The position numbers were made by a program, and so were the translations under genes. The notes under the pieces are model-generated. The model was not told where the DNA came from and made no database searches. It saw nothing but the letters and a program-made list of their open reading frames with translations. Positions 9,591 through 62,321 of a stretch of 64,000 bases of DNA are shown piece after piece. This stretch comes from Planctomycetota bacterium (GTDB lineage Bacteria > Planctomycetota > B15-G4 > SIAN01), in contig JANNXA010000055.1 in assembly GCA_031409275.1 (NCBI GenBank), positions 32,001-96,000 of the forward strand, read 5' to 3'. The stretch's first letter is position 1; the number at the start of each line of letters is the position of its first letter.

Positions 9591-9616
9591 GTGCGCACTA
9601 ACCACGGGAGCGCGCG

Positions 9617-10513: not shown

Positions 10514-12443
10514 CCTCTTCCGCCGGCAGTGGGCGCTCGGGCTCATGCCCGATGAGAAAGTCTCGCTTTGCGATTGGATCGAAGAGCACATCGTCCTCTC
10601 CGACGGCGAGACCAACTCGCCAGGCCCCTACCGCTTTCGGCGCACCCCTTATCTGCGCGCCGTGTTCGAGGCGCTCTCGCCCGACTCACCGGTGCAACGC
10701 GTCGTCGCAATGAAGGGGGGACAGCTCGGCTGGACCATCGGTGCCGCGGCGTTCGTCGGCTTTCTCATCGCGCAGGCGCCGCGCACGATCCTGTTCGTCT
10801 CGCCCACCGTCGATCTGGCGAAGCGCGCCTCAAGGCGCAAGGTCGGCCCGGTCCTAGAAAAGACCGAGATCGTCCGCGCACGGCTGCGCGACCTTGGACC
10901 GCGCCAGACCGGCAACACCACCCTCTTGAAGGAGTTTCCGGGCGGCGCGCTGCTCTTTGCTGGTGCCAACTCCGGTGCTGGTCTGCGCCAGACCTCCGCC
11001 GCCGTCGCGATCCTCGATGAGGTTGACATCTACCCAGCGTCGCTGCCAGGCGAGGGCGATCCGGTGCTCCTCGCCGAGCGCGCTACGAAGACCTTTCCCC
11101 GTAGAAAGCACCTCTACATCTCGACGCCGACGCTTGCCGGGCGCTCGCGCGTCGAGGAGCTTTACGCGCAGTCGGATCAGAGCCGCTACTTCGTCCCCTG
11201 CCCGACGTGCGGCCACTTTCAGGTCCTGGTCTTTCGCGACCGCGTGACCGGCAGGAAGGGGCTCTTGTGGGAAGGCACGCCTCCCAACCTGCGCGTCTGG
11301 TACGCGTGCGCTGCTTGCGCAGGCGCAATCGATGAGGGCAAGAAGGCCTGGATGCTCGAGCGCGGCGAGTGGAGAGCGCAGGTCCCGGCACTCTCGCATC
11401 ACTTCAGGGGCTTTCAGATCTCCTCGCTCTACGCTGCACCGGGCACGTTTTCTTGGCGCGACGTGGTCGAGCAGTTTCTGGCGGCCAAGGACGACGTCGA
11501 AAAGCTGCGCGTCTTCGTCAACCAAGTCTTGGGCGAAGTTTGGGAGGAGCGCGGCGACGCGCCGCCGTGGGAAGAGCTCTACCGGCGGCGCGAGAAGTAC
11601 CCGCGCGGCAGGGTCCCCGTGGGCGGCCTCGTGCTCACCGCAGGCGCCGACGTGCAACGCGATCGCATCGAGGTCGCCGTGGTCGCGTGGGGTAAGGGGC
11701 TTGAGAGCTGGTCGATTGACTACATCGTGATCCCCGGGGACTCCGCGACGGAGGCTCCTTGGAAGGAGCTCGACCGACTGCTCGCGCGGCCGTGGCCGCA
11801 TTCAAACGGCGTGTCGCTGCGCATCCGGGGGCTCGCGGTCGACTCCGGCTTCGAGACCCAGGGGGTCTACAACTGGACGCGTCGGAAGCCCGCCGACAGC
11901 GTCTTCGCCATCAAGGGCTCGGACGCGCTGTCGGCGCTGGTCGGACAGCCTTCGTACGTCGACTTCACCTGGAGGGGGCGTAAGGCCCCGCGCGCGATTC
12001 GGCTCTGGCACGTCGGCAGCAGCGTCGCCAAGCGCGAGCTCTACGGCTGGTTGCGACTGCAACCCCCTCTTCACCCCGAGCGTGGCGAGCCTTACCCACG
12101 CGGCTTCCTTCACTTCCCCGAGTACGACGAGGAGTACTTCCGCCAGCTGACCGCCGAACAACTCGTCGCCCGCGAGCGCCGCGGTGACCACAGGATCACC
12201 TACGTCTGGTCGAAGAAGCACGCGCGCAACGAAGCTCTCGATGCGACGATCTACAGCCGCGCCGCGGCCGCGATCATTGGCCTCGACCGCTACAGCGACG
12301 CCGACTGGCAGCGCGTCGCCGATGAATTGAAGCCGAAGCCACCCGCGCCAGTGACCCCGCCGGTGCGAAGGGTCCCGCCGCCGTCGCGTTATTCGAAAGG
12401 AGGGGAGTCGATGCGCGACTGGTGGGCGGGCCGGCGACGCTGA
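10497..12443 (+). CDS. Terminase large subunit, lambda gpA family (copy A)
   Basis: MKGGQLGWT, ILDEVD, ISTPT, CPTC/CAAC, AGADVQ, AVDSG, RNEALD. Confidence 0.92.
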   Translation: MPTAHDLFRRQWALGLMPDEKVSLCDWIEEHIVLSDGETNSPGPYRFRRTPYLRAVFEALSPDSPVQRVVAMKGGQLGWTIGAAAFVGFLIAQAPRTILFVSPTVDLAKRASRRKVGPVLEKTEIVRARLRDLGPRQTGNTTLLKEFPGGALLFAGANSGAGLRQTSAAVAILDEVDIYPASLPGEGDPVLLAERATKTFPRRKHLYISTPTLAGRSRVEELYAQSDQSRYFVPCPTCGHFQVLVFRDRVTGRKGLLWEGTPPNLRVWYACAACAGAIDEGKKAWMLERGEWRAQVPALSHHFRGFQISSLYAAPGTFSWRDVVEQFLAAKDDVEKLRVFVNQVLGEVWEERGDAPPWEELYRRREKYPRGRVPVGGLVLTAGADVQRDRIEVAVVAWGKGLESWSIDYIVIPGDSATEAPWKELDRLLARPWPHSNGVSLRIRGLAVDSGFETQGVYNWTRRKPADSVFAIKGSDALSALVGQPSYVDFTWRGRKAPRAIRLWHVGSSVAKRELYGWLRLQPPLHPERGEPYPRGFLHFPEYDEEYFRQLTAEQLVARERRGDHRITYVWSKKHARNEALDATIYSRAAAAIIGLDRYSDADWQRVADELKPKPPAPVTPPVRRVPPPSRYSKGGESMRDWWAGRRR

Positions 12444-14678: not shown

Positions 14679-15734
14679 GTGGACCATCCTAACGGCAACG
14701 CCAGGAAGAAGACCGCCGAATTCGAGCCAGTCGAGTTCGAACGCGGCAAGTGGAAGTCATTCGAGACGTACGCGACGGACTTCCTTACGAACACGGCCGC
14801 GCTCCCACTCGCAGCGGTGGGCGTCTACAGCCGGATGCGCGCATCGATCTGGGCCTACGGCAACGGCTGGTCGTTGACCGCGACGCTGCTCGCATGGCTC
14901 ACGCACAGCGGAGCTCGTGATTCCACCGAACTTGACGCCGCGATCGAGGTGCTCGAGCAACGCGGCATTGCCATCTTTGAGCGCGATGGCCTGAACTTGA
15001 CCGTGATCGAACCCTACATGCACGCCGACCTGCGGCGGAAGGAGAAGCGGCGCACGCAGAAGGTTCGGTCTCGGAAGACATCGCGTGAGACAGGGCATGC
15101 CACGTCTGTCGGGACATCGCACGCGACATCGCATGCGACATCGCATGAGACGTCGCATGAGACGTCGCGCGAGACATCGGTACTTCCTCCTTCCTCTGTC
15201 CCCCTTCCTCCGACCTCCACCTCCCCTGCCACTGCGACCAAGGCAAAGACCGCATCTCCGATTGGAGATGCTCGTCCCGCTGGCGCGGGACCAGCCGGGA
15301 CCGACTCGGGGCACCTTCCGCCAAATGCTCGACCAGGGCGTTCACCGCTGCGCATCGACTCTGCCGAGGTCGAGGCGGTCATCGCGCACTACGTCAGCTA
15401 CCACCCCAAGGCATTCCCAGGAGACAGGGAACGACGCCTCATCTGCGCGCGCCGGAAGGAGGGGTACTCGCCGGCCGACCTCTGCGAGGCCATCGACGGT
15501 TGCCACCGCTCGCCGTTCCACTGCGGCGTGAACGAGCGTGGCACGAAGTACCAATCGCTCGAGCTCATCGTCCGCGACTCAACGCGCGTCGCGCAGTTCA
15601 TCGAGATTGCCCGCGCCCCGCCCGCCACTGGTCCGATCACGCATCGCCAGTCGGCCGAGGACGCTGCCGAGGCGCGACTCCTCGCCCGCGCCGGCCTCCC
15701 ACCGAAGGAGCGTGCTAACCATGAACGCACTTGA
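14679..15734 (+). CDS. Putative phage-type replication initiator
   Basis: YATDFLTNTAAL..GVY N-terminus (YdaU/DUF1376-like); internal repeat linker; C-terminal ARRKEGYSPADLCEAID..SLELIVRD. Confidence 0.6.
   Translation: MDHPNGNARKKTAEFEPVEFERGKWKSFETYATDFLTNTAALPLAAVGVYSRMRASIWAYGNGWSLTATLLAWLTHSGARDSTELDAAIEVLEQRGIAIFERDGLNLTVIEPYMHADLRRKEKRRTQKVRSRKTSRETGHATSVGTSHATSHATSHETSHETSRETSVLPPSSVPLPPTSTSPATATKAKTASPIGDARPAGAGPAGTDSGHLPPNARPGRSPLRIDSAEVEAVIAHYVSYHPKAFPGDRERRLICARRKEGYSPADLCEAIDGCHRSPFHCGVNERGTKYQSLELIVRDSTRVAQFIEIARAPPATGPITHRQSAEDAAEARLLARAGLPPKERANHERT
15078..15179 (+). repeat. 12-bp tandem repeats inside the initiator gene (candidate iterons)
   Basis: ACATCGCACGCG ACATCGCATGCG ACATCGCATGAG ACGTCGCATGAG ACGTCGCGCGAG, encoding TSHA/TSHE/TSRE. 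Confidence 0.8.
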
Positions 15735-16287: not shown

Positions 16288-16496
16288 CCCCTCGCCTCGA
16301 CCCGACAGCCATGGCACCCACCGAACGCAAGGCTGAACTCGCGGCCCTTCTCGCCGCGGCTTACCTGCGCCTGCTCGCCTCCCGAAATGACCTTGAGTCG
16401 AGCCCCCAAGGCGAGCCCTCATGCGCACGGGTTGACCGACGCGAGAGGCACGGGGCTTCCGGCGTCGCAGCGACCCAGAAGGAGGACCACCGATGA
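16284..16496 (+). CDS. Small conserved protein preceding DUF2924 (copy A)
   Basis: ERKAELAALLAAAYLRLL; paralog at 49557-49766; ATGA overlaps on both sides. Confidence 0.65.
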   Translation: MTPRLDPTAMAPTERKAELAALLAAAYLRLLASRNDLESSPQGEPSCARVDRRERHGASGVAATQKEDHR

Positions 16497-16960
16497 CACC
16501 CCTTGATGCCGAGCTCGCCGCGCTGCGCGCGCTTGCACCGGCCGCGCTCGCCGCCCGCTTCCGCACCGAGTTCGACCGCGAACCACGCTCGAAGCAGCCT
16601 GCATGGCTGCTGCGCCGCCTCGCCTTCAAAGCCCAGGAGCGCCGCCTGGGGGGTCTCTCCGAGGTCGCGCGGCGCCGCCTCGAAGCGCTGATCGCCGAGA
16701 TCGAGCTGCCCTTCAACCAGTGCGACCATGTGATGTCGCAGCGCCTTACACGAGCGCGGCGCCGCGGCGACCCGCTACCCGGCAGCACGCTCACCCGCGT
16801 CTGGCGCGACCGAGCGCTCGTCGTCCGTGTGCTCGACTCGGGGTTCGACTTCGACGGCACGGTCTACAAGAGCTTGAGCGCCATCGCGAAAGTCGTGACC
16901 GGCACCCACTGGAACGGCCGCCTTTTCTTCGGGCTCGCGGGACGCGGAGCGCAGCCATGA
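16493..16960 (+). CDS. DUF2924 family protein (copy A)
   Basis: RRLAFKAQERRLGGLS..PGSTLTRVWR..YKSLSAIAKVVTGTHWNGRLFFGL. Confidence 0.88.
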   Translation: MTPLDAELAALRALAPAALAARFRTEFDREPRSKQPAWLLRRLAFKAQERRLGGLSEVARRRLEALIAEIELPFNQCDHVMSQRLTRARRRGDPLPGSTLTRVWRDRALVVRVLDSGFDFDGTVYKSLSAIAKVVTGTHWNGRLFFGLAGRGAQP

Positions 16961-18543
16961 GCCCGACCGTGACGCCCTCCATGCGGCGCACCGCCACCAC
17001 CAGCGCACCGCCGAAGCGAGTCGCGGTCTACACGCGGCAAAGCGTCGACCGCGGCGACGAGTACGGCTCGACCGATGCGCAGCGCGAAGCCATCGTCGCC
17101 TACGTCACCTCGCAGCGCGCTCACGGCTGGGTCGCACTCGCAGCCCCCTACGACGATCGCGGTGAGTCTGGGTCAACGCTCGATCGCCCCGCGTTCAAGC
17201 GCCTGCTGCGTGATGTCGAGGCCGGCGATGTCGACGTGATCGCCGTCTACAAGATCGACCGCCTCTCGCGCTCGCTCCTCGACTTCACGCAGCTGATGCG
17301 GCGCTTCGAGGAGAGGGGGGTGGAGTTCGTGTCGGTGACGCAGCAGTTTTCGACGTCGACCAGCGTCGGCCGCATGACCTTGAACCTCCTTGCCACGTTC
17401 GCCCAGTTCGAGCGCGAGACCATCAGCGAGCGCACCCGCGACAAGATCGCCGCCACCCGCCGCAAGGGCATGTGGACCGGTGGGCACCTCGTCCTCGGCT
17501 ACGACGCGGTCGACGGCAAGCTCCGAGTGAACGCCGCCGAGGCGGAGCGCGTTCGCACGATCTTCGACCTCTACCGCCAGGCCAGGTCGCTCCACCCGGT
17601 GGCCGCCGAGCTGCGCGAGCGCGGATGGACGACCAAGTCATGGACCAACCGCGCGGGGGCCGTGGTCGCAGGCCGGGCGTTCTCGGTGCCGACGCTGCGC
17701 CGCCACCTGGAGAACGCCCTCTACGTCGGTCAGGTCCGGCTCGGCGACGAGATCCATCCGGGCGCGCACGAGGGCATCGTCGACCGCGCGCTGTTCGACG
17801 CCGTGCAGGACCTCCTCGCCGCGACGACCAGCCAACGTCCCGCCCTCCCGAAGCGCAACAAGTGGGGGGTGCTGCTGCGCGGCCTGCTCCACTGCGGCGC
17901 CTGCGCCAGCACGATGGTCCACCACTTCGCGAGTCGCGGGACTCGCCGCTACGGCTCCTACGTGTGCGCCCGCTACGCAAAGTCCGGCGCCGCGGCGTGT
18001 CCGGGTGCGCGGATCGCGGTCGGCGCCATCGAAGGGTTCGTGGTCGAACGGCTGCGCGCGATCGGGCGCGAGCCCGGACTGGTCGCGGCCACGCTCGCCG
18101 CCGCGCAGCGCGCCCTCGCCGAGCGCCGGCCGGCCGCGGAGAAGGAGATCGCGGGCTGCGAGGTCGACCGCAGAGGATTGCGCGACGAGCGCAAGCACCT
18201 CGTCGCCGCGGTCGGGAGAGGTGGCCAAGGATCGGCCCAGATCCTCGAACGACTCGGGGCGCTCGACTCCGGAGTCACCGCGCTCGACGAGCGGGAGCGC
18301 GCGCTTCGGCGCGAGATTGCGGCGCTTGAGGCGGCGGCGATTGATCCCGACGACCTGCGTGCGGCGCTCACGGCGTTCGACCCCCTGTGGGCGCGGCTCA
18401 GCGTGGCCGAGCGCACGCGCGTGATGCACCTCTTGCTCGAACGGGTGACCTTCGACGGCCGCACCAACGACGTCGCCATCACCTTCCGCGCGAACGGCCT
18501 GCGCTCGGTCGCCGCGGCGGCGAGCGGAGACGAGGCCCCCTGA
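16957..18543 (+). CDS. Large serine recombinase (copy A)
   Basis: AVYTRQS catalytic Ser, SGSTLDRPAF, KIDRLSRS, recombinase domain, CGAC..YVC..C zinc ribbon, coiled coil. Confidence 0.93.
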   Translation: MSPTVTPSMRRTATTSAPPKRVAVYTRQSVDRGDEYGSTDAQREAIVAYVTSQRAHGWVALAAPYDDRGESGSTLDRPAFKRLLRDVEAGDVDVIAVYKIDRLSRSLLDFTQLMRRFEERGVEFVSVTQQFSTSTSVGRMTLNLLATFAQFERETISERTRDKIAATRRKGMWTGGHLVLGYDAVDGKLRVNAAEAERVRTIFDLYRQARSLHPVAAELRERGWTTKSWTNRAGAVVAGRAFSVPTLRRHLENALYVGQVRLGDEIHPGAHEGIVDRALFDAVQDLLAATTSQRPALPKRNKWGVLLRGLLHCGACASTMVHHFASRGTRRYGSYVCARYAKSGAAACPGARIAVGAIEGFVVERLRAIGREPGLVAATLAAAQRALAERRPAAEKEIAGCEVDRRGLRDERKHLVAAVGRGGQGSAQILERLGALDSGVTALDERERALRREIAALEAAAIDPDDLRAALTAFDPLWARLSVAERTRVMHLLLERVTFDGRTNDVAITFRANGLRSVAAAASGDEAP

Positions 18544-18595
18544 CCGCATGTCGACGACACGAACGACCAGCCCCGCGCACCAAGGAGACGAAGCC

Positions 18596-18988
18596 ATGCC
18601 AGCACTGACGGTGACCGGCCGCCTTGAGCGACCAGCGGCCCGACCGAGGACGGTTGCGCGCGATCCCGAACCCGGAGTCGACGGCGTCCCCAACGGGCCC
18701 GCAGCAACGCCGCCCATGCCGAGACCGGCCGGGACAGCACGTGTGGCGCGGCAGCTCGCGCTCGCTTACCACGTCGAGGCGCTGGTCGACTCCGGTTCAG
18801 TGCGCGACTACGCGGCGGTCGCGCGCGCGCTGGGGCTCACGCGCGCCCGCCTGTCGCAGATCGTGGCCCTGCGCTGGCTGCCGGTGGCGACCCAGGAAGC
18901 GATCTTGACCGGCGCTTCGACCGCGTCGGAGCGTCAGTTCCGCGCGGCGGCGGGTTCGCCTTGCAAGCGCGCCGACACCTCGCCCTGA
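18596..18988 (+). CDS. HTH protein downstream of the recombinase
   Basis: LALAYHVEALVDSG..AVARALGLTRARLSQIVALRWL; AGGAG upstream; paralog at 52139-52480. Confidence 0.7.
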   Translation: MPALTVTGRLERPAARPRTVARDPEPGVDGVPNGPAATPPMPRPAGTARVARQLALAYHVEALVDSGSVRDYAAVARALGLTRARLSQIVALRWLPVATQEAILTGASTASERQFRAAAGSPCKRADTSP

Positions 18989-21225: not shown

Positions 21226-21483
21226 CTAGCACGCCCTTATTCCGCGCTCGACGCCAAGGTCGAAGTAGGCCGCCTCCCGCTTGGCACGGAGCTCGTCGGC
21301 TGCCGCCTCGAACTCGAGCCAGCGCCTCCGCTTGGTGCCAAGCGCCTTCACGATCGCGGCCGCCTTCGTCGTGACGACTCGCTGCAAGTCGCGGCGCCCA
21401 ACGCGCCGGCGGACCGTCCGGTCGACTGGGTGCTCGTAGCTCGGATCCTTCTCGATCGCGCGGTAGCTGAGGCGGGGTTTCAC
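21226..21483 (-). pseudogene. 3'-truncated paralog of 61702-62136
   Basis: Matches MKPR..EKDPSYEHPVD to GVE.GI.AC, then stops at 85 aa; the paralog runs to 144 aa. Confidence 0.6.
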
Positions 21484-21683
21484 GCCTGGCTCCCGACGCG
21501 CGCCACCGCGAAGCTGGCGCCCGCCAGGAAGGCCTCGACGTACAGGTCGACTGCAGCGACGGCATCGAGCACCGCATCGGGCGTCAGTCGATCGTGGGCG
21601 CGCTCGTCTGCCTCAGTTCGCCATAAGGCATCGTCAGTGACCGCGGTCGGTCCCGCGGTCAGGGCATCGGATTCGATCGGCAT
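21480..21683 (-). CDS. Small hypothetical protein
   Basis: LW..EA.ERAHDR..AVDL.VEAFLAGA shared with 62133-62321. Confidence 0.65.
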   Translation of the reverse strand: MPIESDALTAGPTAVTDDALWRTEADERAHDRLTPDAVLDAVAAVDLYVEAFLAGASFAVARVGSQA

Positions 21684-22852
21684 CGTCGTCTCCAAGCGCA
21701 CGCGAAATGCGCGCGCGGGGAGACAGTCACGCTCTCGAGCGACCTGGAATCAAGATGGCGGAGCGACCCGTTCGCGCTCTGTTGGCGTCAACCAAGCTGT
21801 CCCGCGTTTGCATCACGCTTGGGGGCCAAGCGGATCTCGGGTTCGCTGTTTACCGCCCTCTTCCTCTCTTCCACGACGAGAGAGTCCGAGAGCAATCGCG
21901 GCCGAGAGTTCGCTGATGCGCGACGCGGGTCCAAGCGAAGCGCTGCGAACAGAGAAACGGCGGCGCTTTGGTGACCGCCGTATCTCGCGCGTGACGCGCG
22001 ACTTCCGACGAGGCCAGCGAGCGGGGTACGAGCGGCCGCTGTCAACCACCGGGGCTGCCGCGCTGACGGGCGAGGAGCGCGTTGGCTCCCCAAGCGATCA
22101 GGAAAAGCGAACTGCTCTCTGTTCGTATTCGCGGCCGATCGGGCACCCAAGTCCAACTGTGACGCGAAAGCGAACAGCGTCGTGCTCTCGGTCAACAAAC
22201 TTTGAGCGACGAGACGTGGCGTGACAAATCGTCGAGATTCGCTCCGCCTCGCGGCGTTGCGGTCGCCCGCCTTCGACTGCCGTGCTCTCGGCGCGAAACG
22301 AACGTGGTGGTAGGGGCCGTCGTCGAAGCACCGGCTGAGCTCTGGCACGACCGATCCTCCAAGCACCGCATTCAGTCGCGGTTCGGCACGCGATTCAGCC
22401 ACGGCCGTTCGGCTGCACCATAAGGGCGTGGCGACGGTCGGGCAGCTCCGGTGCGCGACCTTGACGAAAACTCAAACTGCGGGCAACTGGTCGGCGCGGC
22501 GGTTCCGAGACTTGTCGGCCGGCGTGACATCGATCGCATCACGGAGCGGGTGTCCACGCCAATCGTGAGGGCGTCGGTCAGGCGCTCCGACTGTGGCTCC
22601 GGTTTGTGCCCGACCGACTTCCCCAGCCAGTAGCCATGTTTCGATCGGCGCACGGCGAACTCTCGGCAGATCCTCACTAGCGCCACGTCGGAGCGCCGTA
22701 CTTCCCCGCAGCGTCACGCGTCGGCTCGGACCAGACGGCTTCGTATATCTACTCGCGGGTGAGGTCGATGGATTCCAAGGGCATCGGTTGCGCTCACTCC
22801 GGAATGAGCACTGCGTCAAAACGTCTTATGTTACGGACTCGTTGTTCTGGTC

Positions 22853-24238
22853 TCATCTGGCACGCGCGCCTCGCAACGCAAAGGCTGGTCGATCGTCGTG
22901 GTTCGCGACGTAGCGACTGAGCGCATTCATGAAGTCCTCGCGTGGACGTAGCCGCCCCTCTTTCCGCGCTCGCACAAGGCGCATGAGCACGCCGCTTGCG
23001 GCGCGGAGCGAGAGTGGCTGTACGTGTAGATGTCGCCTTTCTGGCGCGAGGATCGACATTTCGGATAGCCGCTTCCGCGAGCAGTTGCCGACCGGCCCTT
23101 CGGGCTGGCTGCGCGCCTCGAATGCCTTTCCTTCACGGCTGAACGCGGCAAGGGGCCACGAGCGTCCAGACGCACGATCGAATGGGACGCCATCCTCCGT
23201 CACTGCGACAGGTGAAAGAAGTCGCTTGCCAATCCACTCGGCGACGCGGACGGGAACAGCGTTCCCGACATACTTCCAACGAGAGTTGTTTCGAACACCA
23301 GGCCCGCTGACATCAGTCCAGCCAACGGGAAAACCCTGGATCCGTTCCGCAAGTTCAATTGACGGTGTCGAGAACTCATTCGTGTCACGGAACCAGATCG
23401 CAGGGGGTGAAGGGATGCCGAGGCTCGATCCACCCTTGAGCGTCGGGATGGCCTCTGCTGCCCAGCCCAGCCCTCGGTTGCCCTCGGTCCAGTAGAAGCC
23501 ATAGCAGGAGCCGCTTTCTTCGTCAGACGGGAGTTCCTTCACAACGCCATCGGACGGGTCGAACAGGACGGATCGAGGATCGTCCTCGGGCGAGCGAGAT
23601 GCCAGGAAGAAAACGCGCCGACGGCGCTGGGGAAGACCAAACTGCAGCGAGTCGAATACTCTGTATGCCCACCAACGGTAGCCGAGCTTTTCGAATCCCT
23701 GGACCACGCATTCCATGGCGCGCCCAGACTGAAGCCGAAGCATGAACGGCACGTTCTCGAACAACACCCAGCGCGGAGCGGTGCCCTTGCGCTTCGCAGC
23801 GGCGAGGAGACGGAACACCTCGCTGACGAGTCCGCTCTTCTCGCCGTCGATGCCGGCGGTCAGCCCCGCCTGGCTCAAGTCCTGACACGGAAAACCAGCG
23901 GTGACAAGTTCCGCCCCGTCAAGATCGCGAAGTTGGCGGACATCGGAGTGAAGTCCGCCCTTCAGGCCAAACCGAGCGGCCAGGATCAACCGGGCGCCCG
24001 CGTCGATCTCGCACGCGAGCCGAAGTCCGCTGACGGAAAAGCCAGCGCGGTGAAGGCCCAGCTCGATCCCGCCGATTCCGGTGAACAGCGACGCGACCCG
24101 GCTGTCCCTACGGAGAGCAGGAGAGGCTGGATGTCCCTCCCTTGCCCGCTCGGATTCGGTGCTGATCCGCTTTGCGGTTGACTTGATCTCGGCGAGGGGC
24201 AAGGCCAACCTCCGATTGTTCCAGACAGATTGAACCAT
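22853..24238 (-). CDS. DNA (cytosine-5)-methyltransferase (start may be TTG 24202)
   Basis: LFTGIGG, GFPCQD, ENV, PQRRRRVF, YVGNAV. Confidence 0.92.
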   Translation of the reverse strand: MVQSVWNNRRLALPLAEIKSTAKRISTESERAREGHPASPALRRDSRVASLFTGIGGIELGLHRAGFSVSGLRLACEIDAGARLILAARFGLKGGLHSDVRQLRDLDGAELVTAGFPCQDLSQAGLTAGIDGEKSGLVSEVFRLLAAAKRKGTAPRWVLFENVPFMLRLQSGRAMECVVQGFEKLGYRWWAYRVFDSLQFGLPQRRRRVFFLASRSPEDDPRSVLFDPSDGVVKELPSDEESGSCYGFYWTEGNRGLGWAAEAIPTLKGGSSLGIPSPPAIWFRDTNEFSTPSIELAERIQGFPVGWTDVSGPGVRNNSRWKYVGNAVPVRVAEWIGKRLLSPVAVTEDGVPFDRASGRSWPLAAFSREGKAFEARSQPEGPVGNCSRKRLSEMSILAPERRHLHVQPLSLRAASGVLMRLVRARKEGRLRPREDFMNALSRYVANHDDRPAFALRGARAR

Positions 24239-24279
24239 AAACCGGGGGCGATCTCGAGCCCCCGGTGGCGAGACTGGCG

Positions 24280-24771
24280 TCAAGGCCGGAGAATCTGCTC
24301 GTCGCACCGCTCGCAGCGCCTTCGGGCGATTGAATCGAAGATCCGACCGGCGGCCTTGACGGGATCTTCGTGAGCCCAAACGCGGATGACCAGCCAACCC
24401 GCCAACCGAAGCCGACGGTCCGTATCCCTGTCCCTGCGTACGTTCGCAGCGAGCTTCGCGCACCACCAAACGGCATTCGACTTCGGTTGAGTTCCATGTC
24501 GCGGACAGCTGTGCCAAAAACAGCCGTCGACAAAAACTGCGACGCGTTCGCGTCGAAACATGACGTCGGCCCGGCGACGAAGTCCGGGCAGCGGCGCGGC
24601 GTCCACCAAGTACCGTAACCCAACTCCATGAAGAACACGACGAAGACGAAGTTCTTCGGGCGTGTCGCGCTTCTTCGTCGAGGCCATCCGCTTGCGAACC
24701 GCCGGGGACGACGCGAGCGGCCTGATCGTGTTAGACGGTGAGCGATTCGCCAACGGCATGCGATACATCAC
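24280..24771 (-). CDS. vsr: Very short patch repair endonuclease
   Basis: RDTPEELRLRR, ADVMF, AVFVDGCFWHSCPRH, NVRRD, RVWAHE. Confidence 0.92.
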   Translation of the reverse strand: MMYRMPLANRSPSNTIRPLASSPAVRKRMASTKKRDTPEELRLRRVLHGVGLRYLVDAAPLPGLRRRADVMFRRERVAVFVDGCFWHSCPRHGTQPKSNAVWWCAKLAANVRRDRDTDRRLRLAGWLVIRVWAHEDPVKAAGRIFDSIARRRCERCDEQILRP

Positions 24772-25481
24772 TTAGCTTGGGCGAGAGACATGTATTGTTT
24801 CGTTTCAATGAACCGGCCAAGACTTCGAAGGAACCCTCGGACGTAGAGTTCCGTCTCCTTAGCCGTCCGCTTGAGGTCATCGAGCGTGACGTCGCGGCCG
24901 CATTCCGCGAACGACTTCTCGCCGTGGGCAAGAGCATTCCGCTGATCCTTGACGATGACGAGGCTGGCACCGCCCTTTGCGTTCTTGTGCACTTTGAGAC
25001 TCAAGTTGTGCCTCTCACATACCTTCCTGATTTTGGCTGCATCGAGACTGCCCGCACCGGGCAGCTCGTCGGCACTCAGATGTACGATCCTCTTTTGGAC
25101 GATTTCGTCGACGAGTTCTGAAGCCGCCTTGCGATAGTTCTCAGGAGACGCAGTCTCGAACCTCACAGCTCGATGCTTCTGGTCAATCCAGACTGCACGG
25201 ATCGACTCGCTCAGGTTGTGGCATGTGCATTGGTCAGTTTTCACCGCGAAGTACAGCCGTTCGAAACCCGACCTCACTGCCGATTCGACGAGGTTGTAAA
25301 TGAGCAAGTAGGCGGTGGCCTTTCCGATGACCCGCCAATTGTCTTCGACAGCAACCGAATGCGGCCTACCACCTGAACGACGACGAAGCACGGAGCCCGG
25401 GGACTCCATCCTCTTCAGCATCCTCAAATAACTCTGGATGTCTTTCGCACGCTGCTCGAAGTCCTTGACGACGGACTGCAT
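24768..25481 (-). CDS. HEPN nuclease, MAE_28990/MAE_18760-like
   Basis: YLLIYNLVES, GSLDAAKI, QRNALAHGEKSFAECG. Confidence 0.85.
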   Translation of the reverse strand: MQSVVKDFEQRAKDIQSYLRMLKRMESPGSVLRRRSGGRPHSVAVEDNWRVIGKATAYLLIYNLVESAVRSGFERLYFAVKTDQCTCHNLSESIRAVWIDQKHRAVRFETASPENYRKAASELVDEIVQKRIVHLSADELPGAGSLDAAKIRKVCERHNLSLKVHKNAKGGASLVIVKDQRNALAHGEKSFAECGRDVTLDDLKRTAKETELYVRGFLRSLGRFIETKQYMSLAQAK

Positions 25482-25483
25482 CG

Positions 25484-26536
25484 TCAGCCCTCGACACCGA
25501 GCAAATGGTCGCGGACGAATTCAACTCGTCCCCGAAGTCGTGGGCCGGAATTGCTCGCATGCGTCGTGGTGTGGTCCTCAAACTCTGCAGATGCAAGCCA
25601 CCTATGGACATCCGAGGGTGATAAATCTTGCTTCAACCTCAGTGCAAGGTTCGTTCCGACAGCAATCGCTTCGAATCGAACGCGGGGTGTGATCTGGGCT
25701 CCGGGACCCTTTGCGAATCCGTGAGGAAAGTGCTTCTCGACGAACTCCATTGTGCTGTCGAATTCGCTCTGGAGCCGCTTGGCCTCGAACGCCGTCCGAT
25801 GCTCACACGCATAGCGATCCAGAAACGAATCAACGTCGTGCCGAAAGTCCTTGTACGTGTCGGAATATGCAAAGAACCTCAACACAAGCTCCTCGTCCTC
25901 TCGACGCTTCTTCATCTTGTCGCTGATCGGACACAGTTCGACGAATCGTTTGTCGTTGGCCAGCTTCTTGACGAAGTCCATGAAAGGTCCCGTCAATGCT
26001 CCTCGGCGGACTTCGCTTGCTCGCGCCCTCACCCCGCTCGTATTCACTCTGTCGAACACCTCTTGTCGCAACTCAGGAGTCGTACTGTCTTCGAGAACTA
26101 CAACTCGGAGCGCCTTGGTTCCGAACTTGCGCTGTTGCGCAATCGGAAGATCAGAAAAGACGAAGCCTTCGAGGGACTTGAGTCGCTTGAGACCCTCCAA
26201 TCGAAGATCGGAGTTCGTGAACTCCTCAAGCGTCTGGATCCGTTGAGCTCCGTCCACGATCTCCAGTCGGCCGTCGTCCATGTCGGCGACGAACATCATC
26301 GGAATCGGAAGTCCGAGGATGACCGACTCGACGAATCTGCACTTGTGCGTCGAGGGCCAAATAAACTCCCGCTGGTACGGCGGCACGTAGAAGAACGACT
26401 CGCGAAACTTCGTGACGATGTAATCGATCGTGAAATCACGCAGGTCGTAGCGGACCTCGTGCTGCATCTCGCGGATCTCCTGCTCCGCTACTTGGCGCTC
26501 TTTGTCCCCGACTTTGTGGAGCAATTGCTGTTTCAT
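25484..26536 (-). CDS. DUF262 (GmrS/ParB-like) domain protein
   Basis: PPYQREFIW, FVESVILGLPIP, VDGAQR, FDRVNTSG. Confidence 0.9.
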   Translation of the reverse strand: MKQQLLHKVGDKERQVAEQEIREMQHEVRYDLRDFTIDYIVTKFRESFFYVPPYQREFIWPSTHKCRFVESVILGLPIPMMFVADMDDGRLEIVDGAQRIQTLEEFTNSDLRLEGLKRLKSLEGFVFSDLPIAQQRKFGTKALRVVVLEDSTTPELRQEVFDRVNTSGVRARASEVRRGALTGPFMDFVKKLANDKRFVELCPISDKMKKRREDEELVLRFFAYSDTYKDFRHDVDSFLDRYACEHRTAFEAKRLQSEFDSTMEFVEKHFPHGFAKGPGAQITPRVRFEAIAVGTNLALRLKQDLSPSDVHRWLASAEFEDHTTTHASNSGPRLRGRVEFVRDHLLGVEG

Positions 26537-26671: not shown

Positions 26672-27493
26672 TCATGACGCATTGGCGTCTCCAAGCTCCG
26701 CGATCTGCGCCGAATTGACTAGCCAAGCGATTTGTTCCGCGACGCGCTTCGGACTCGGACCGCCTTCGATGAAAACACCAAGCTCCATGTTGAAGTCGAA
26801 TGCCGCCTCGGTCAGGTTTGCGCTCGTCACGAGCAACGTGGTCGAGTCGGCCAACGCGAACTTGGCGTGCAGTGCGCCGGGAGTCCCACGTCCACTCTTG
26901 GGACGGTTTTCGAGCCGCCACTCATAGACGACGGCTCCAAGATCGACGACGGACCGCAACGCCGAGATCCCGTCGTGCGTGATCCGTCCACCCCCGGACT
27001 CCCTTGATTCGAGGAGTAGCCGAACGCGCACGCCTCGCCGGAGGGCATCGACCAGTGCGTCCCGGATGCCGCTGATCGCGTACGCGACAAACGAGACGAT
27101 CCACAACTCGCTTCGAGCTCCCTGGACCAGCTCAGTCAGGGCTTGCTCGGTTCGCCGGAGGGCAGATCCCGGCTTCGTCGGCCCAGACCATACGAGTTCC
27201 ACTTGCTCACCGAGGCGCGCGGCCTCGACGGCACAAGAAGCACTCGAGATGGCCAACGCAATCGTGTCCGCTGTCACGGAGCCGCTGGCATTCCGCCAGG
27301 CAGCGACGAGAGAGTCGACGCGGTCACGACACTCAGCCGGGAATCCCGCCGGGGTGGGATCAATCCCGATTCGATCACCCGGTGTCGTTCCAAGCGACTG
27401 CAAGTGTCCGACGAGTTCCTCGGCGACGGCCGCCGGTAGGTCGGCAACAAGTTCCGCGATCTTCCGAGCCAGGAGATCAGCACGCGGGTCCAT
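26672..27493 (-). CDS. drmC: DISARM phospholipase D-family nuclease
   Basis: ELVWSGP, LHAKFALAD (HKD), TSANLT, NMELG; follows drmB. Confidence 0.9.
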   Translation of the reverse strand: MDPRADLLARKIAELVADLPAAVAEELVGHLQSLGTTPGDRIGIDPTPAGFPAECRDRVDSLVAAWRNASGSVTADTIALAISSASCAVEAARLGEQVELVWSGPTKPGSALRRTEQALTELVQGARSELWIVSFVAYAISGIRDALVDALRRGVRVRLLLESRESGGGRITHDGISALRSVVDLGAVVYEWRLENRPKSGRGTPGALHAKFALADSTTLLVTSANLTEAAFDFNMELGVFIEGGPSPKRVAEQIAWLVNSAQIAELGDANAS

Positions 27494-27494
27494 G

Positions 27495-29351
27495 TCAGCT
27501 CGGCGCTCCTTCCATCCAGGGCGCGAGCGGCTTGCGAACGGTCACCGCAAGAACCGAGCGGTCGAGGTACTTGTTCCCGCGCTCGCACGATGTTTCGGAG
27601 ACGAACAAGCAGGAATGGCAGGCGGTGCCGTGGAGCACTCCTCGACCGCGCTCGGGTCGATGTTCGGCGCAAAGCGGATCCGACGAGCAAAGCTGGAGGC
27701 GCTGGAGTCCGATAGTCAGGTGTCGTCGAAGCGACTCCGATTCACCGAGGGCGACGAGCCCACCAAGCGTTCCTTCGCTGTCGGCTGCAGCTGTGAAGAG
27801 CAGGACGCCAGCCATCGCGCCGCCCTCCTCGTCCGCTCCGGCCGAGTAGATGCGTTCCTCGATACTGGCGGCCGAGTACCCGCATTCGATCGCGAACTGA
27901 CGAAGCAGCGTGTGCGACAGCGTGTGCAGGACGACATAACGCAGGCCGGGATACTGCTCCTCGGGATTGGGGATGTTGCGCGCGCGACGGAAAGAGACGT
28001 GCGCGCGGCGGAATTCGCCGTCGAGTTGTCTCGCCTCGGTCCCATCGAGCCACGCGGACAGCGTGTCCTCGCGCAAGCGGAGGAATACCCCCTCGCCCCT
28101 CACCTCGGTCGATGGGACCCAGGTCGGAGCCCCGCGTGAGAGCGGCCCGCGCTGGATCTGCGGAATTTGCGCTGGATCACCGAAATCACCGGGCGATTCG
28201 ATCCGTGTGAAGCCGATGCAGGCACGCACCACGCGCAGCCGTTCGACGAGGACGACTTCGGCGATGAACTTCTCGAACCCCCTCGGAGCCGTCGCGGACC
28301 GCACTCGGAAGTCGTCGGACTTCGGTGCAGCGGCAGGATTCGTGAGCACGCCCCACTCTTCCCGTCGCAGATCGCCGAAGGACTGAGTCGTCGCCTTCGT
28401 GATGGTTGCTCGGCGGCGCTCCTCGATGGCCTTCCAGACTTCATCCCGCGACCATGCACCGAACTGCGTCAGGACCATGAGGAGCGGCTTGAGCTGATCG
28501 ACGCTCGAGACCTCCTTCAAGACGGTCCAGATTTCGTCAACTTTCTGTCGCAGCTTTCCCTTGTCCGTCGGCAGCGACAGTGCAGAGAGCGGGATCGAAA
28601 ACCAGAGGTTCGATGCACCGATCAGCATCACGCGCGGCTTTTCCGTGCAGCCTTTGTCCTCGTAGTCGCGCCCAAGATGCGGATGCCTTCCCGTGCACTC
28701 TTGAGGCAGGTGCTTCAGCGCGTTGTCGCCGAACGCCAGCGTCATCGGCTTGCCCGCGTTGCACCCCTTGCAGAACACGCGCAGGTCGGCGACCTCGGAC
28801 GAAAGTCCGCTCTCTTGGAATTCGAGTGGCCCGGAACACCCCGGAGTCTTGTGCGCGATGAACTGGTCCCACGGGAAGTCGTCGAGATGGCCGTTCCGGC
28901 ACGCGACGACGAACCTCGCGGGAACGACCTGCGGCGGCTTGCCGATCTTGCAGTTCTTGTGCACGTAGCAGGTGCGATCCTGCCGGAATGGCTCCTCCTT
29001 CAACTCGAAGATCCCGAGATCGAGCGGCGCGAGCGTCTGGCAACGTGGGCAACGCACCCAGCGCGGGAACGTGACGACGGGCACCCCGGTGCGCGCGTCC
29101 TCGCTGAACGGATCGCTCCCGTCCCGATAGATCGGCGCGACCAGCCGTTGGACCTGGCTCCCGAGATGGCTCTGCACCAACGCGAGCAGTCGATCTTCGG
29201 TGATCTCGTTGAGAGGCGACGGTGCTGCCCACTGCTGCAATCCGGAAGGCATCACCGACATGCGCGGGAGATCGACGATGGAGCCGACCCCGTACGTGTG
29301 GAGGATCTGGCTACGCCTCGCTTGTCCGACTCGGAAGGGTGCGAACGGCAT
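27495..29351 (-). CDS. drmB: DISARM DUF1998 protein
   Basis: YGVGSIVD, CRNGHLDDFPW, LHTLSH, GTLGGL, CSSDPLC..ACHSCLFVSETSC. Confidence 0.92.
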   Translation of the reverse strand: MPFAPFRVGQARRSQILHTYGVGSIVDLPRMSVMPSGLQQWAAPSPLNEITEDRLLALVQSHLGSQVQRLVAPIYRDGSDPFSEDARTGVPVVTFPRWVRCPRCQTLAPLDLGIFELKEEPFRQDRTCYVHKNCKIGKPPQVVPARFVVACRNGHLDDFPWDQFIAHKTPGCSGPLEFQESGLSSEVADLRVFCKGCNAGKPMTLAFGDNALKHLPQECTGRHPHLGRDYEDKGCTEKPRVMLIGASNLWFSIPLSALSLPTDKGKLRQKVDEIWTVLKEVSSVDQLKPLLMVLTQFGAWSRDEVWKAIEERRRATITKATTQSFGDLRREEWGVLTNPAAAPKSDDFRVRSATAPRGFEKFIAEVVLVERLRVVRACIGFTRIESPGDFGDPAQIPQIQRGPLSRGAPTWVPSTEVRGEGVFLRLREDTLSAWLDGTEARQLDGEFRRAHVSFRRARNIPNPEEQYPGLRYVVLHTLSHTLLRQFAIECGYSAASIEERIYSAGADEEGGAMAGVLLFTAAADSEGTLGGLVALGESESLRRHLTIGLQRLQLCSSDPLCAEHRPERGRGVLHGTACHSCLFVSETSCERGNKYLDRSVLAVTVRKPLAPWMEGAPS

Positions 29352-29354
29352 CGA

Positions 29355-32300
29355 TCACTTCCCTCCCTTAGTGGCGTCCTCTTGGAGCACGAGACCGGGC
29401 GATGGCTCGACATCACGCAACGAGTTCAGGCACGTAAACGTCTCCCAATCCCGCTCTTCTGGCTTCTGGAGCAGCGGAACCGAGACGCCGTCCTTCCGAG
29501 CCCGGTAGACGAGCATCGGCTTCTTTCGCGCCATGTTCACCCACTCGTCGAGCACGCGGCGCAGTCGATCCGCGACCTCGTCGCCGAGAGCCTGGCTTCC
29601 CGAAACGCCTGCGACACGAGCGCGAACTTCTTGAATCGCCTGCTGTGCCGACACATCCGTCACCTGCGCGCGCGAAGCTCCGTCATTCGCTGTGAGGGTT
29701 GGAGAGCGAAGCCTTGCCAAGGAAATGAGCAATGCAGTGATCCCTCGATCGAGAGCTCGGGCCGAAAAGGGCGTCACCGAAAGTGGCTCGACCTGCTCGT
29801 AAAACGTCCCGTGGTAGTGACCAAACCTTTCGTAGTGCGACAGGTCACGCGGCCGCGCCCAGTTGTAGACCGTGCAGACGATGCCCGGATGCCGACGACC
29901 GACGCGGCTCGTCGCCTGGATGTACTCGGCCGTGCTCTTCGGCTGACCGGCGACGACCATCAGCCCGAGTCGACCGATGTCGACACCGACCGAGATCATG
30001 TTCGTCGAGAGCAGCACGTCGATCGGCTTCTGCGAAGTGAACGTCGTGCGCGCCTTCCGCTCGGCTTCGCGCTGCTTCTCCAACGCCGGATCGAAGACGG
30101 CCTCCATCAAGTCGAGCAGGCCGGGGATCTCCGTCGAGTTCCGCCGCGAGGTCAGTTCCTCGACCAACGGCCTCGGCCGCCGCGCGAGTCCGCGCTCGTT
30201 CATGCGCAGTAGTCGGTTGGCGACGTCGTCGTCCACCAGCCGTCGCATGCCGCCGAGTTCGCGGAGCGAGTTGAAGTAGCCGACGAGCGTGCACCACGGA
30301 TCCGTGTGCTTGCCGTACTGCTTGTCGTAGAGAAGCCACGTCGCCGCGAGGTAGGCCGTGTACGTTCGGATCAGAACGCCCTTGAGTCGACGACCTGGCG
30401 CGCACACTCCGACGTACAACCGCCCCGGCGTGTCCTCGCTCGACTTCCGACGAACCGAGAAGAAGTTGTCCGCGATGTCCGTTCCGGGCGGCGGGAACAC
30501 CGCGACCCTGCGCAGGAACAGCGAACGCACTTGGTGCGCCGCATTGCGGATCGTCGCCGTCGACACGATGACCTTCGGCCGCACCGTCTTGCCGCCGACC
30601 TTCCACGTACACATGGCGTCGACGGCAGTCTCGTACAGCCCGACCAAGCTCCCGAGCGGGCCGGAGATCAGGTGCAGCTCGTCCTGGATGACGAGATCCG
30701 GCGGCCGTAGCGGCGGGTGGTCGATCGTCTTGGTCGCCGGATGCGAGCCCTTTGCCGGATGCGAGTCGGCGTCCTCTAGGTCCGGCGCACGGAACCCGTG
30801 CCGTGGACAGAGGCGCAACACGCGGCCGAACAGGTTCTGCGTCGCGCCGTTCCACGGCATCTGCGCGAACTTGTCGACGGTCGCGATCAGGAGCGACGGC
30901 GGGCGTCGGTAGATTTCCTCGTCGACGACGAGGACGGGCAGTCCCTCGTCCTTCGACTTGGCCTTGCTGAACAGGCACTGGCCGTAGGTGTCACCGCAGT
31001 ACGTGATCGTGCGACAGCGCCCCTGCGCCACCGTCTCCACGTCGATGTCGCGCCCCTCCTTGATCTCGGAGCCGCACCACGGGCAGGAAGTGAGCTGAGC
31101 AGGTGATCCGCTCGCGCCTGTCTTGTGGAAGCCCTTGGAGCCACCGCCGCGCGCCTCCTGGATGTACTCGTGCGCCTCCTCGGTCCAGTTCGGCGTCGTA
31201 CGCGCGCCGACCCAGATGCCGATGCGGAACGGCTCCTCGCCCCAACGCTTGTCGCCCTTCTCAAGCGCCTCGCGGCGGATCGCCTCGCACGCGCACACGA
31301 GCACGGACGCGCGCTGGAACTGCTGCAGCGTCAACAGGCGCAGCGTGTAGCGCATCAGCACGGCGATGCCCTTCTCGCCCGAGTATCCTTCGACCATTCC
31401 CCGGAGACGGCGCAGGCCCATCACGTACGCGGAGAGCCCCAAGTACGCTTCCGTTTTTCCTCCGGCTGTCGGGAACCAGAGGAGATCGGCGACGGCCTCG
31501 CTCGCATGACTGCGCTCGGGGTGATGGAGATCCGTGCAGCTCGGCAGGTTGAGCAGGATGAACGCGAGCTGGAACGGCCTCCACAAGTGGTTCGCCGGAT
31601 CCGCGTCGATGGCCTCGAGGTCGGGCTTTCGACCGCGCCTGCGATCCTCGGCGAACTTGGAATGGATGCGCTGCTTCCACATCGCATAGTTCGCGAAGCG
31701 GAACGACTCGGCCGCCTGCTCGTCTCGCTCCAGCAGCGCGATGCCCGCCTCGACTCGACGTAGCGCCGCGCGGCAACTCGTGATCGCATCGTGCGCGGGC
31801 GACTGGTACTCGTCGAGTCTCGCCGCCGGATCCGTGATCTCGCCTTCGCGCAGGTCGATCCAGCGCTGGTACGCCTGAACGAGCGGCCGGAGCGCGGGTC
31901 CGAGTTCTGCCCGCGACTTGAAGGCCAGGACCTTCATGTCGAGTTCGAGGCCCTTGAGTCCCTCGAAGCCCTTATCGTTCTCGGTGGGCGCGTCGACGCG
32001 CTCGACTTCGGACGTCGGCATCGCGACGGTCGTCAGCAACCGCGCTTTCCAAGCATCCTTCGGGTCGACCTCGGAGTGGGTGGCCGTCCCGTGTCCGACG
32101 GCGAACTCGCCGTAGCGGCGGTACAGCATCGCCATCTCGCGCTCCTCACGAGACAAGTCGGTGCCGTCGTCGAACTTGCCGCGCATCGACGGCCGACGCT
32201 CGAACACCGAGGAACCGTCGACGCCCTCGACGGCCAGCTCGACTTGGAAGAGCCACGCACTGCCCGCCTTCTCGTCCTGCACTTCTTCTTGCTCGTTGAC

Positions 32301-32948
32301 CAGGAAGAGCGTGACGACCCACTGGTCGTTCAACTTTCGGACGATGCCCTCGACGTGGACCTCGGGCTTCCGCGCATCAGGGCTGACCTTCGCGATCGGC
32401 CCTTCGCGCAACGCGACGGTGAACGGTTCGCCTCCGTGGGGCGTGCGCTTCCAGACCTTTTGCGGGTTGCCGCTCTTGGTCTCGAGCGAGGCGCTGTCGG
32501 TGCGCTGGTACTGGCCCCATGCGGCCGTGACCCGAACCTGCGTCACATGCTTCGCGACGACGAAGCTGAGGCCCAGCGACGAGGGAAACATCGTCCCCGT
32601 GCGGACACCGGAGAACTCTCGCGTGCCCTCCTCCCGGCTGTCGGGATGGTCGCCGGTCTCGATCGTGTCGTCTTCGCGCTGATCGAGGCTCGTTTCCTTC
32701 GGCGCGAGCATCCCGACGAGGTAGCGGTCCTTGACCGAAGACTCGTCGACCTCTTCGTCGGGGCCACCGGCCGGTCCTTGGAGTTCGAGCCGCACGAGGC
32801 GATCGATCTCCAAGCGGATGGTCGGCAGGCTCGGCGTGCGCGGAGCCACGAGCTGGGCGTCGGTCTTAGCGGAGGGGGCCATCTCCATCGCTCGAACCTG
32901 AGGCTCGGCAGGAGATCGCACCGGCTTGTCGGGATCAGGATCGGGCAC
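29355..32948 (-). CDS. drmA: DISARM SF2 helicase
   Basis: WRPFQLAF, WFPTAGGKTEAY, IQDELHLISGPLG, NMISVGVD, YIQATSRVGR. Confidence 0.92.
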   Translation of the reverse strand: MPDPDPDKPVRSPAEPQVRAMEMAPSAKTDAQLVAPRTPSLPTIRLEIDRLVRLELQGPAGGPDEEVDESSVKDRYLVGMLAPKETSLDQREDDTIETGDHPDSREEGTREFSGVRTGTMFPSSLGLSFVVAKHVTQVRVTAAWGQYQRTDSASLETKSGNPQKVWKRTPHGGEPFTVALREGPIAKVSPDARKPEVHVEGIVRKLNDQWVVTLFLVNEQEEVQDEKAGSAWLFQVELAVEGVDGSSVFERRPSMRGKFDDGTDLSREEREMAMLYRRYGEFAVGHGTATHSEVDPKDAWKARLLTTVAMPTSEVERVDAPTENDKGFEGLKGLELDMKVLAFKSRAELGPALRPLVQAYQRWIDLREGEITDPAARLDEYQSPAHDAITSCRAALRRVEAGIALLERDEQAAESFRFANYAMWKQRIHSKFAEDRRRGRKPDLEAIDADPANHLWRPFQLAFILLNLPSCTDLHHPERSHASEAVADLLWFPTAGGKTEAYLGLSAYVMGLRRLRGMVEGYSGEKGIAVLMRYTLRLLTLQQFQRASVLVCACEAIRREALEKGDKRWGEEPFRIGIWVGARTTPNWTEEAHEYIQEARGGGSKGFHKTGASGSPAQLTSCPWCGSEIKEGRDIDVETVAQGRCRTITYCGDTYGQCLFSKAKSKDEGLPVLVVDEEIYRRPPSLLIATVDKFAQMPWNGATQNLFGRVLRLCPRHGFRAPDLEDADSHPAKGSHPATKTIDHPPLRPPDLVIQDELHLISGPLGSLVGLYETAVDAMCTWKVGGKTVRPKVIVSTATIRNAAHQVRSLFLRRVAVFPPPGTDIADNFFSVRRKSSEDTPGRLYVGVCAPGRRLKGVLIRTYTAYLAATWLLYDKQYGKHTDPWCTLVGYFNSLRELGGMRRLVDDDVANRLLRMNERGLARRPRPLVEELTSRRNSTEIPGLLDLMEAVFDPALEKQREAERKARTTFTSQKPIDVLLSTNMISVGVDIGRLGLMVVAGQPKSTAEYIQATSRVGRRHPGIVCTVYNWARPRDLSHYERFGHYHGTFYEQVEPLSVTPFSARALDRGITALLISLARLRSPTLTANDGASRAQVTDVSAQQAIQEVRARVAGVSGSQALGDEVADRLRRVLDEWVNMARKKPMLVYRARKDGVSVPLLQKPEERDWETFTCLNSLRDVEPSPGLVLQEDATKGGK

Positions 32949-32952
32949 TCGA

Positions 32953-36999: not shown

Positions 37000-37015
37000 G
37001 GGTGGTCTTTGGCTC

Positions 37016-42134: not shown

Positions 42135-42175
42135 TCCCGCGCGGCGATCCGAAGCGCTCGCAGTAGGAGTTTCGG

Positions 42176-42865: not shown

Positions 42866-42893
42866 GTCTTCGAATTCGCTGGAGGACGCCCGC

Positions 42894-62136: not shown

Positions 62137-62321
62137 CGTGAGGCTCCCGTCGGCGGCGCGGCGAACGCGGCCCCGGCGAGGAACGCCTCGACGAAGAGGT
62201 CGACCGCCTCGACGCCGATGAACGTCGACTCCGGCGACACTCGGTCGTGGGCGCGCTCCTCCGCCTCGGCCTCGGCCCACAGCCCGGCCTCGGCGGTGGC
62301 TTCCTCTGATCCGGCGCTCAT
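62133..62321 (-). CDS. Small hypothetical protein
   Basis: GGAGG RBS; paralog of 21480-21683. Confidence 0.65.
   Translation of the reverse strand: MSAGSEEATAEAGLWAEAEAEERAHDRVSPESTFIGVEAVDLFVEAFLAGAAFAAPPTGASR

Follow-up and report, generated by a model that had tools for sequence, protein, structure and literature searches.

The 64,000-nt window analysed here, C55:32001-96000 of the Planctomycetota source genome G000 (C55 being its contig), contains the joint between two large genomic islands stacked at a tRNA-Asn gene. Judged from sequence, the likeliest history, to which we give a probability of about 0.75, is that an island-encoded large serine recombinase (LSR) inserted element B (22083-62795; 40,713 bp) between tRNA-Asn and the older element A, leaving a joint at 22082 (C55:54082), with stacking driven by the LSR. 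Element B carries an anti-phage system and DNA-packaging genes with no detectable shell genes, and so may travel in another phage's capsid.

The intact target, tRNA-Asn(GTT), occupies 62796-62870 on the minus strand, with the anticodon-loop GTTAAC at 62833-62838. The A/B joint core (22082-22091, minus strand) reproduces tRNA-Asn positions 68-76 with one further base and is the probable crossover region. The preliminary description paired a string at 22074-22091 with one at 62784-62804; both are present there. Its caution that a 10-bp match alone could be chance is answered by the wider match: the 10 bp form the centre of a joint that has a conserved arm on either side. Chance would produce the bare 10-mer 0.13 times in a 64-kb strand and the 18-mer with a 0-4 nt spacer 4e-5 times; in addition, ~220 nt of arm sequence are alignable between the two sites. 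The joint at 22082 is confirmed as a real att joint, in which island arms flank 9 nt copied from the tRNA-Asn end. The 10-mer has 10 exact copies in G000: four at internal joints, one at a further joint on C17, one in the tRNA, and four not assigned to joints.

Two details of the original comparison need correction. The extra CCA (62792-62794) is a 3-nt indel within the island arm, the tRNA's own CCA being the TGG at 62796-62798. The shared 14-mer CGCTGTCAACCACC is not in equivalent positions at the two sites, lying 45 versus ~300 nt from the core; it is an arm motif with 3-4 repeats per arm, and its positional counterpart in B is GTCAAC at 62753-62758. The same pair of terminal minus-strand genes does precede both sites, the copies being homologous at 75% and 53% amino-acid identity.

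Element B has at its left end a distal arm (P; 22092-22425, minus strand), of which ~35-45 nt, with a CGAAC..GTTCG palindrome, are conserved at all internal joints; an IS right-end remnant occupies ~22262-22425. The cargo follows, all on the minus strand: a C5 DNA methyltransferase (22853-24517), a defence-like pair consisting of a GmrSD_N-domain gene and a MAE_28990-like HEPN gene (24768-26536), and a class I DISARM system called by PADLOC, with drmD, drmMI, drmA, drmB and drmC (26672-40168). DrmA, B, C and D have NCBIfam matches above cut-off, and the five genes that define class I stand in one cluster. The proposal that DISARM is cargo of element B is well supported, and a 40.0-kb unit in the relative G340 likewise encloses DISARM. 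On the plus strand lie genes for a ParB-methyltransferase, TerS and a lambda gpA-type TerL (40686-44831), with no portal or capsid match after them, then a Toprim primase/replication protein (46705-49047). The recombination module (49775-52480, plus strand) comprises DUF2924, the LSR (50266-51804) and a small protein with a predicted ParB/Noc fold (52238-52480). A WD40/PD40 repeat protein with 174-180-nt repeats is encoded at 58894-60576 and has paralogues on C16, C17, C25 and C51. The two terminal genes (61702-62321, minus strand) are homologous to 21226-21701 of A; no family was found for them, and the terminal gene T1 had no atlas match. The tRNA-proximal arm (P') of B spans 62400-62795 on the minus strand, the GTCAAC noted above being its anticodon-mirror motif.

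Element A is 45,123 bp long and starts outside the window at C55:8959; its right part fills 1-22082. Its cargo is T2SS/pilin-like, with a secretin/ATPase/GspF/pilin cluster at 226-5062, and includes a 2164-aa protein with a weak Peptidase_M91 match (locus L002:2241-8735). Methyltransferase-TerS-TerL (8139-12443), rep (14679-15734) and DUF2924-LSR-HTH (16493-18988) follow. A also carries IS copies. Its tRNA-proximal arm (P'; 21760-22081, minus strand) has repeated GTCAAC/CTCTC motifs, with the anticodon-mirror GTCAAC at 22041-22046.

When the 43 ORFs of A and B were scanned against PHROGs, terminases were the only head and packaging matches, and a genome-wide profile search found no PF05136 portal in G000 (93% complete). 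In B, 1.9 kb separate TerL from the primase. TerS and TerL are intact in both elements; between A and B, TerL has a dN/dS of 0.19 at a dS of ~0.9. A possible portal in A, the 531-aa ORF that follows TerL, was rejected for having no Pfam or PHROGs match and a weak coding signal. Other genomes, G176, G221 and G237, also have a TerL beside the LSR with no portal match nearby, and their TerLs are of different types. G345 was dropped from this set, as its contig ends ~1 kb past the TerL match. The 40-kb elements of G205 and G340 have a TerS match only. No conserved cos- or pac-like sequence was found between A and B upstream of the methyltransferase.

The six large units measure 40.0-47.1 kb, and units of 1.6-13 kb have the same ends. 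The 40-47 kb cluster is consistent with a packaging limit for the large units; 40 kb is also a general peak of genomic island sizes (PMC12424338). The overall interpretation in the preliminary description stands for tandem integration, the 40.7-kb unit and the DISARM cargo, its capsid-size idea being at most consistent with the data. The class of recombinase, the mirroring of the arms and the small units devoid of a recombinase had escaped that description. Satellite packaging of the large islands is, on the gene content, about an even proposition. A lambda-type portal lies within 30 kb of the LSR in 9/66 relatives; these are reckoned to be full prophages using the same module, which makes them candidate helpers.

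The portal-bearing relatives also lend weight to a different account of the packaging step, and of that step only: A and B would be decayed prophages that lost head and tail genes and gained cargo, the terminase a relic and the array an inert pile. The three portal-bearing relatives that are in the tree are interspersed with portal-less ones, the low dN/dS could stem from a phage past, depth is without amplification, and A has its IS copies. We consider decay less likely, though a serious contender for this step. The TerLs of A and B have diverged to a dS of ~0.9, yet both elements stop directly after an intact TerL; a cut at this point is also seen in G176, G221 and G237, whose TerLs are of different types; and the large units cluster in size.

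Turning to the recombinase, the LSRs of A and B both have PF00239, PF07508 and PF13408 (Resolvase, Recombinase and zinc-ribbon) matches above cut-off, with R22, Y26, R28, S30 and four Cys invariant, i.e., the domains and the catalytic Ser of a large serine recombinase. They are two of the four resolvase-domain matches in G000, one such gene per element, and the distance from their end to the joint is 11 kb in B and 3.5 kb in A. Their named homologues are for the most part labelled Planctomycetes. At E ≤ 1e-100 the LSR is found in 67/401 genomes of the phylum. In 29/66 relatives a tRNA-Asn (25) or tRNA-Met (4) is no more than 50 kb from it, where part of the Asn calls rest on BLAST only and Met links were counted only in fetched loci; in the LSR-bearing Planctomycetota genomes of at most 20 contigs, it lies within 25 kb of tRNA-Asn or tRNA-Met in 10/10. 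The related genome G003, of the same genus and 84% complete, has the joints and no match to the LSR of A/B.

A single-protein search of viral sequences returned no LSR relative, whereas an alignment-based search did find relatives. Among 80 viral loci with a related LSR, 17 have a tRNA: 12 Asn, 2 Met and 3 Gln. In three viral loci (L102, L106, L135) the LSR adjoins tRNA-Gln; the Gln(TTG) and tRNA-Asn genes have a common GGGGAGC end. Scans for the junction pattern retrieved two metagenome stretches and no viral sequence. In a quick LSR tree of 32 rows, near-identical pairs included, the six Met-targeting rows form a single branch (SH-aLRT 100; one change versus 5.6 when shuffled, 0/500). As to the partners, a fold like that of ParB/Noc DNA-binding domains is predicted for the small HTH protein that follows the LSR (structure matches at E 0.17-0.7, TM ~0.6-0.7; by sequence, E 7e-4). 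DUF2924 gave no Foldseek match; its best VIA hits (Z 6-7), a SAP/HeH-like N-terminus and an MPND/CcrM-like C-terminus, are a weak lead only.

The anatomy of the site is as follows. The core letters common to all G000 joints narrow to AGCCA, tRNA positions 72-76, and the sequence common to the unit joint and the tRNA is 3 nt in G205 and 4 nt in G363. From these shared letters we infer a crossover at the end of the acceptor stem, with a gene that needs no repair; a shared core of 3-5 nt is in keeping with the short overlap of serine-type enzymes. In G237, G221 and G414 the joints contain 16-25 nt of tRNA, as in tyrosine-type islands. Counted from position 74, the island arm has a GTTAAC (at most one mismatch) at 30-42 nt on the island side, and the anticodon-loop GTTAAC that it faces lies at 35-40 nt on the tRNA side. 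This anticodon-mirror motif is present in 16/19 genome arms versus 1/49 other G000 tRNAs, a post hoc count that uses the internal joints of G221 and G414 and becomes 14/19 with their tRNA-adjacent, motif-less arms. In an independent set it is found in 11/12 viral Asn arms versus a shuffled mean of 0.46. It also occurs at 2/11 tRNA-Asn sites with no LSR known nearby. In other families of the order, arm-like CTCTC/GTTAAC motifs occur ~220 nt beyond tRNA-Asn (L025, L026 and L028, from G008, G017 and G021), in genomes with no LSR at E ≤ 1e-100. Many relatives' arms have a T-loop mirror at +14 to +17, which is absent from G000's own arms. The motifs mirror one another across the tRNA end and are candidate imperfect inverted half-sites; the exact dinucleotide within the 3-5 nt core is not fixed. 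A site 38 nt out is beyond the usual LSR footprint, which points to an accessory reader of the mirrored site.

Long arms with repeated motifs resemble a tyrosine-type attP. It could accordingly be argued that true att sites were made by a tyrosine integrase acting in trans, the LSR being a passenger or an invertase, all the more as the available text of the Islander study states that only tyrosine integrases are known at tRNA genes (PMC4383910) and the large unit of G237 encodes a tyrosine integrase as well. This is quite improbable. Neither A nor B has a tyrosine recombinase, and 0/5 PF00589 matches of G000 fall within C55:1-96000 (the array is split over contigs). The 3-9 nt of identity sit at the very 3' end of the gene, outside the anticodon and T-arm subsites given in the same Islander text (PMC4383910), and the target tRNA follows the LSR tree. 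LSR-driven insertion is the preferred reading.

The joint recurs in G000, where it is found six times besides the tRNA: C55:284, C55:7406, C55:8959, C55:54082, C35:7733 and C17:27223. Another, more degenerate joint lies at C17:13912. Each joint has an arm of 250-650 nt on one side and the conserved arm of ~35-45 nt on the other; at tRNA-Asn, the tRNA gene stands in place of the short arm, as serial integration predicts. Further copies had been foreseen upstream of the window, and they are there, at C55:8959, 7406 and 284. The units on C55 measure 40,713 bp (B), 45,123 bp (A), 1,553 bp and 7,122 bp. The ~40.7 kb unit between the two original copies is well supported. So is tandem integration at tRNA-Asn, by the joint family, the upstream copies and the 40.0-kb unit of G340 with the same 9-nt core. 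Similar joints surround different cargo in G003. At C7:104408 and C17:14975 the short (distal) arm and a degenerate core adjoin foreign DNA, resembling insertions at secondary sites. The first of these, an isolated distal arm with its degenerate core (C7:104214-104416), has no tRNA in the region and no recombinase match among the ORFs scanned, and is possibly a secondary insertion scar.

In the small G000 units that were scanned, the genes are of toxin-antitoxin, metabolic or membrane type, accompanied by IS pieces. No recombinase match was obtained in them, nor in the small units of G237 and G363. An IS left-end remnant lies 550-610 nt from the core in five G000 arms (none of them an arm of A or B) and in two G003 arms; an IS right-end remnant is found at three joints, B's left end included. 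Two distinct rve-type IS families, as well as the IS remnants in the arms of small units, are preceded by a ~30-nt repeat starting with GTAG (C55:6780, 8367; C17:23986, 26618, 29383, 35481; C18:14978; C27:1856; C15:3665), which is possibly a REP-like IS target. A toxin-antitoxin cluster (YefM/ParE, YefM/PIN, UPF0175) at C55:7400-10960, covering the 1.55-kb unit and the start of A, may stabilise the array. Within an array unit on C35 there is a group II intron reverse transcriptase/maturase (L003:1653-2975). The peptidase cargo of a 4-kb G003 unit (L019, G003:C58) matches the non-array segment C10:145071-148030 of G000 at 71%, which hints at chromosomal gene capture. Contigs C2, C15, C26 and C8 hold pieces of at least one further related element, namely terminal genes, ParB-MTase, a rep region, another resolvase-domain gene and SNF2/methylase clusters; they are probably the same array broken by repeats.

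Tandem arrays recur in G205, G340, G237 and G363. G205 has two elements of 40.9 kb and ~42 kb, with no distal arm common to both by BLAST, and the units of G237 measure 47.1, 5.0, 12.0 and 4.7 kb. Another idea sees in the match no recombination scar but chance or a non-coding repeat of dispersed type (REP/MITE-like or a terminator). It draws on the IS-end remnants that adjoin many joints and on the distal-arm copy on C7 away from any tRNA. It is largely refuted: on C55 every copy has the same orientation, is downstream of the tRNA and marks off one whole unit from the next; exactly one arm gives way to the tRNA; and the same layout occurs in four other genomes with unrelated arm sequences.

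The ends of the array are harder to read. DNA downstream in G004 has no clear syntenic block in G000, so that empty-site mapping does not place the far (distal) end. The ~55 nt past the tRNA in G004 are common with the island arm and are either a scar or a natural trailer; the proximal boundary is therefore not readable from that genome. Contigs mapped to the locus gave no circle joint, emptied site or alternative tRNA neighbour, at a flat depth of ~16-18x. They come from runs X1/X2, possibly the assembly's own source, and break at 22081, so that the order of A and B is not independently bridged by them.

The closest published systems, by analogy, appear to be SCC composites and the Dehalococcoides ssrA islands. 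According to the available text on the latter (PMC3146451), they lie, like the G000 array, in tandem downstream of a structural-RNA gene and are split by short direct repeats; DsiB is, like the LSRs of A and B, a serine recombinase of ~540 aa; ParB-like and methylase genes belong to the module; and many units have no integration module (accretion). They differ in their target, tmRNA with a 20-bp repeat versus tRNA-Asn/Met with a 3-16 nt core here, and in that dsiB overlaps attL and has DsiA as partner, whereas here the LSR ends 3.5-11 kb from the site, with DUF2924 and the HTH protein as partners. The TerS/TerL of A and B are a further difference from the islands as described there (PMC3146451). 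With tRNA-Asn as target, the LSRs 11 and 3.5 kb from the joint and one resolvase-domain gene per element, A and B fall outside the ssrA islands proper.

In SCC/SCCmec, as far as the available text goes (PMC13739063), CcrAB/CcrC likewise insert at a gene 3' end using degenerate inverted-repeat half-sites, composites arise by serial integration, and ccr-less units bounded by att sites exist. The target there is rlmH with the core TATCATAA, versus tRNA-Asn here, and terminase is unmentioned for SCC in that text (PMC13739063), versus TerS/TerL in A/B. The LSRs score 149, 112 and 106 bits against ccr recombinase cut-offs of 900, 900 and 700 (CcrB: 149 versus 900), which places A and B outside SCC.

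AlpA-type regulators and small size are hallmarks of PICIs. A and B have the integrase, primase and TerS of a PICI, but at 40-45 kb with an intact TerL they are neither small nor TerL-free, and no AlpA match was found among the scanned ORFs. In the available account of PICIs and cf-PICIs (PMC10085698), these resemble A/B in having an integrase, a primase, a small terminase, no tail genes and defence cargo. Cf-PICIs couple TerL with capsid, portal and head-tail genes (PMC10085698), whereas A/B have TerS and TerL without those, at 40-45 kb. Tycheposons, in the portion of the text available, are cargo or satellite-like elements stacked, as here, at tRNA genes with partial tRNA copies between them, but 474/501 use tRNA-associated tyrosine recombinases (10.1101/2020.12.28.424599), unlike A/B; the on-board PF00589 gene that marks tyrosine-integrase tRNA islands has 0/5 of its genome matches in the C55 array. 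Paracoccus phage vB_PamS_Pami6 is a serine-recombinase prophage reported, as for this clade, at tRNA-Met (PMC6536676). Pami6 and lambda-like DUF2924-LSR prophages are single full prophages, for which the available text gives no att anatomy or arrays (PMC6536676); their likeness to the clade is by description only.

We propose the following mechanism. A circular island would recombine at tRNA positions ~72-76, leaving the tRNA gene intact. The resulting tRNA-island joint would remain usable as a target, so that islands stack with the newest nearest the tRNA. The mirrored motifs ~38 nt out would serve as accessory sites for a reader encoded alongside the LSR, probably the ParB-like HTH protein or DUF2924. 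Recombinase-free small units that keep both arms would owe their position to movement in trans or to accretion, and their cargo probably to IS-assisted capture before such movement. TerS and TerL would probably load the large islands into a helper phage capsid, plausibly that of a full prophage of the same LSR family. Extended to its full reach, the proposal is that this LSR clade reads the T-loop and anticodon loop of the tRNA, cuts at the very end of the gene and never uses up its site, and so underlies two things: recombinase-free cassettes in an integron-like row, and undescribed 40-47-kb satellites that have a whole terminase, no capsid, and defence cargo in the space of structural genes. 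We hold this extension tentatively, as possible but, taken whole, somewhat doubtful.

Serine integrases are stated, in the available text of the Islander study, not to be known to target tRNA genes (PMC4383910), Pami6 at tRNA-Met (PMC6536676) being the one exception listed here from the available text. The word 'tRNA' is absent from the available main text of Durrant 2022 (PMC10083194). Our literature search, which covered part of the work on serine integrases at tRNA genes, found no description of a DUF2924-LSR island family; it returned Wolbachia studies for DUF2924 with recombinase, and nothing on Planctomycetes genomic islands at tRNA-Asn. Here, throughout a phylum, an LSR clade targets tRNA genes at a site whose anatomy is defined and which, it appears, can be used again. 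This bears on how LSR directionality can be relaxed, and it makes a conserved gene available as a landing pad for serial insertion. If true, packaging with a full terminase but no capsid would be a strategy distinct from those of PICIs and cf-PICIs. The array also illustrates a way in which defence islands can accumulate DISARM and other cargo.
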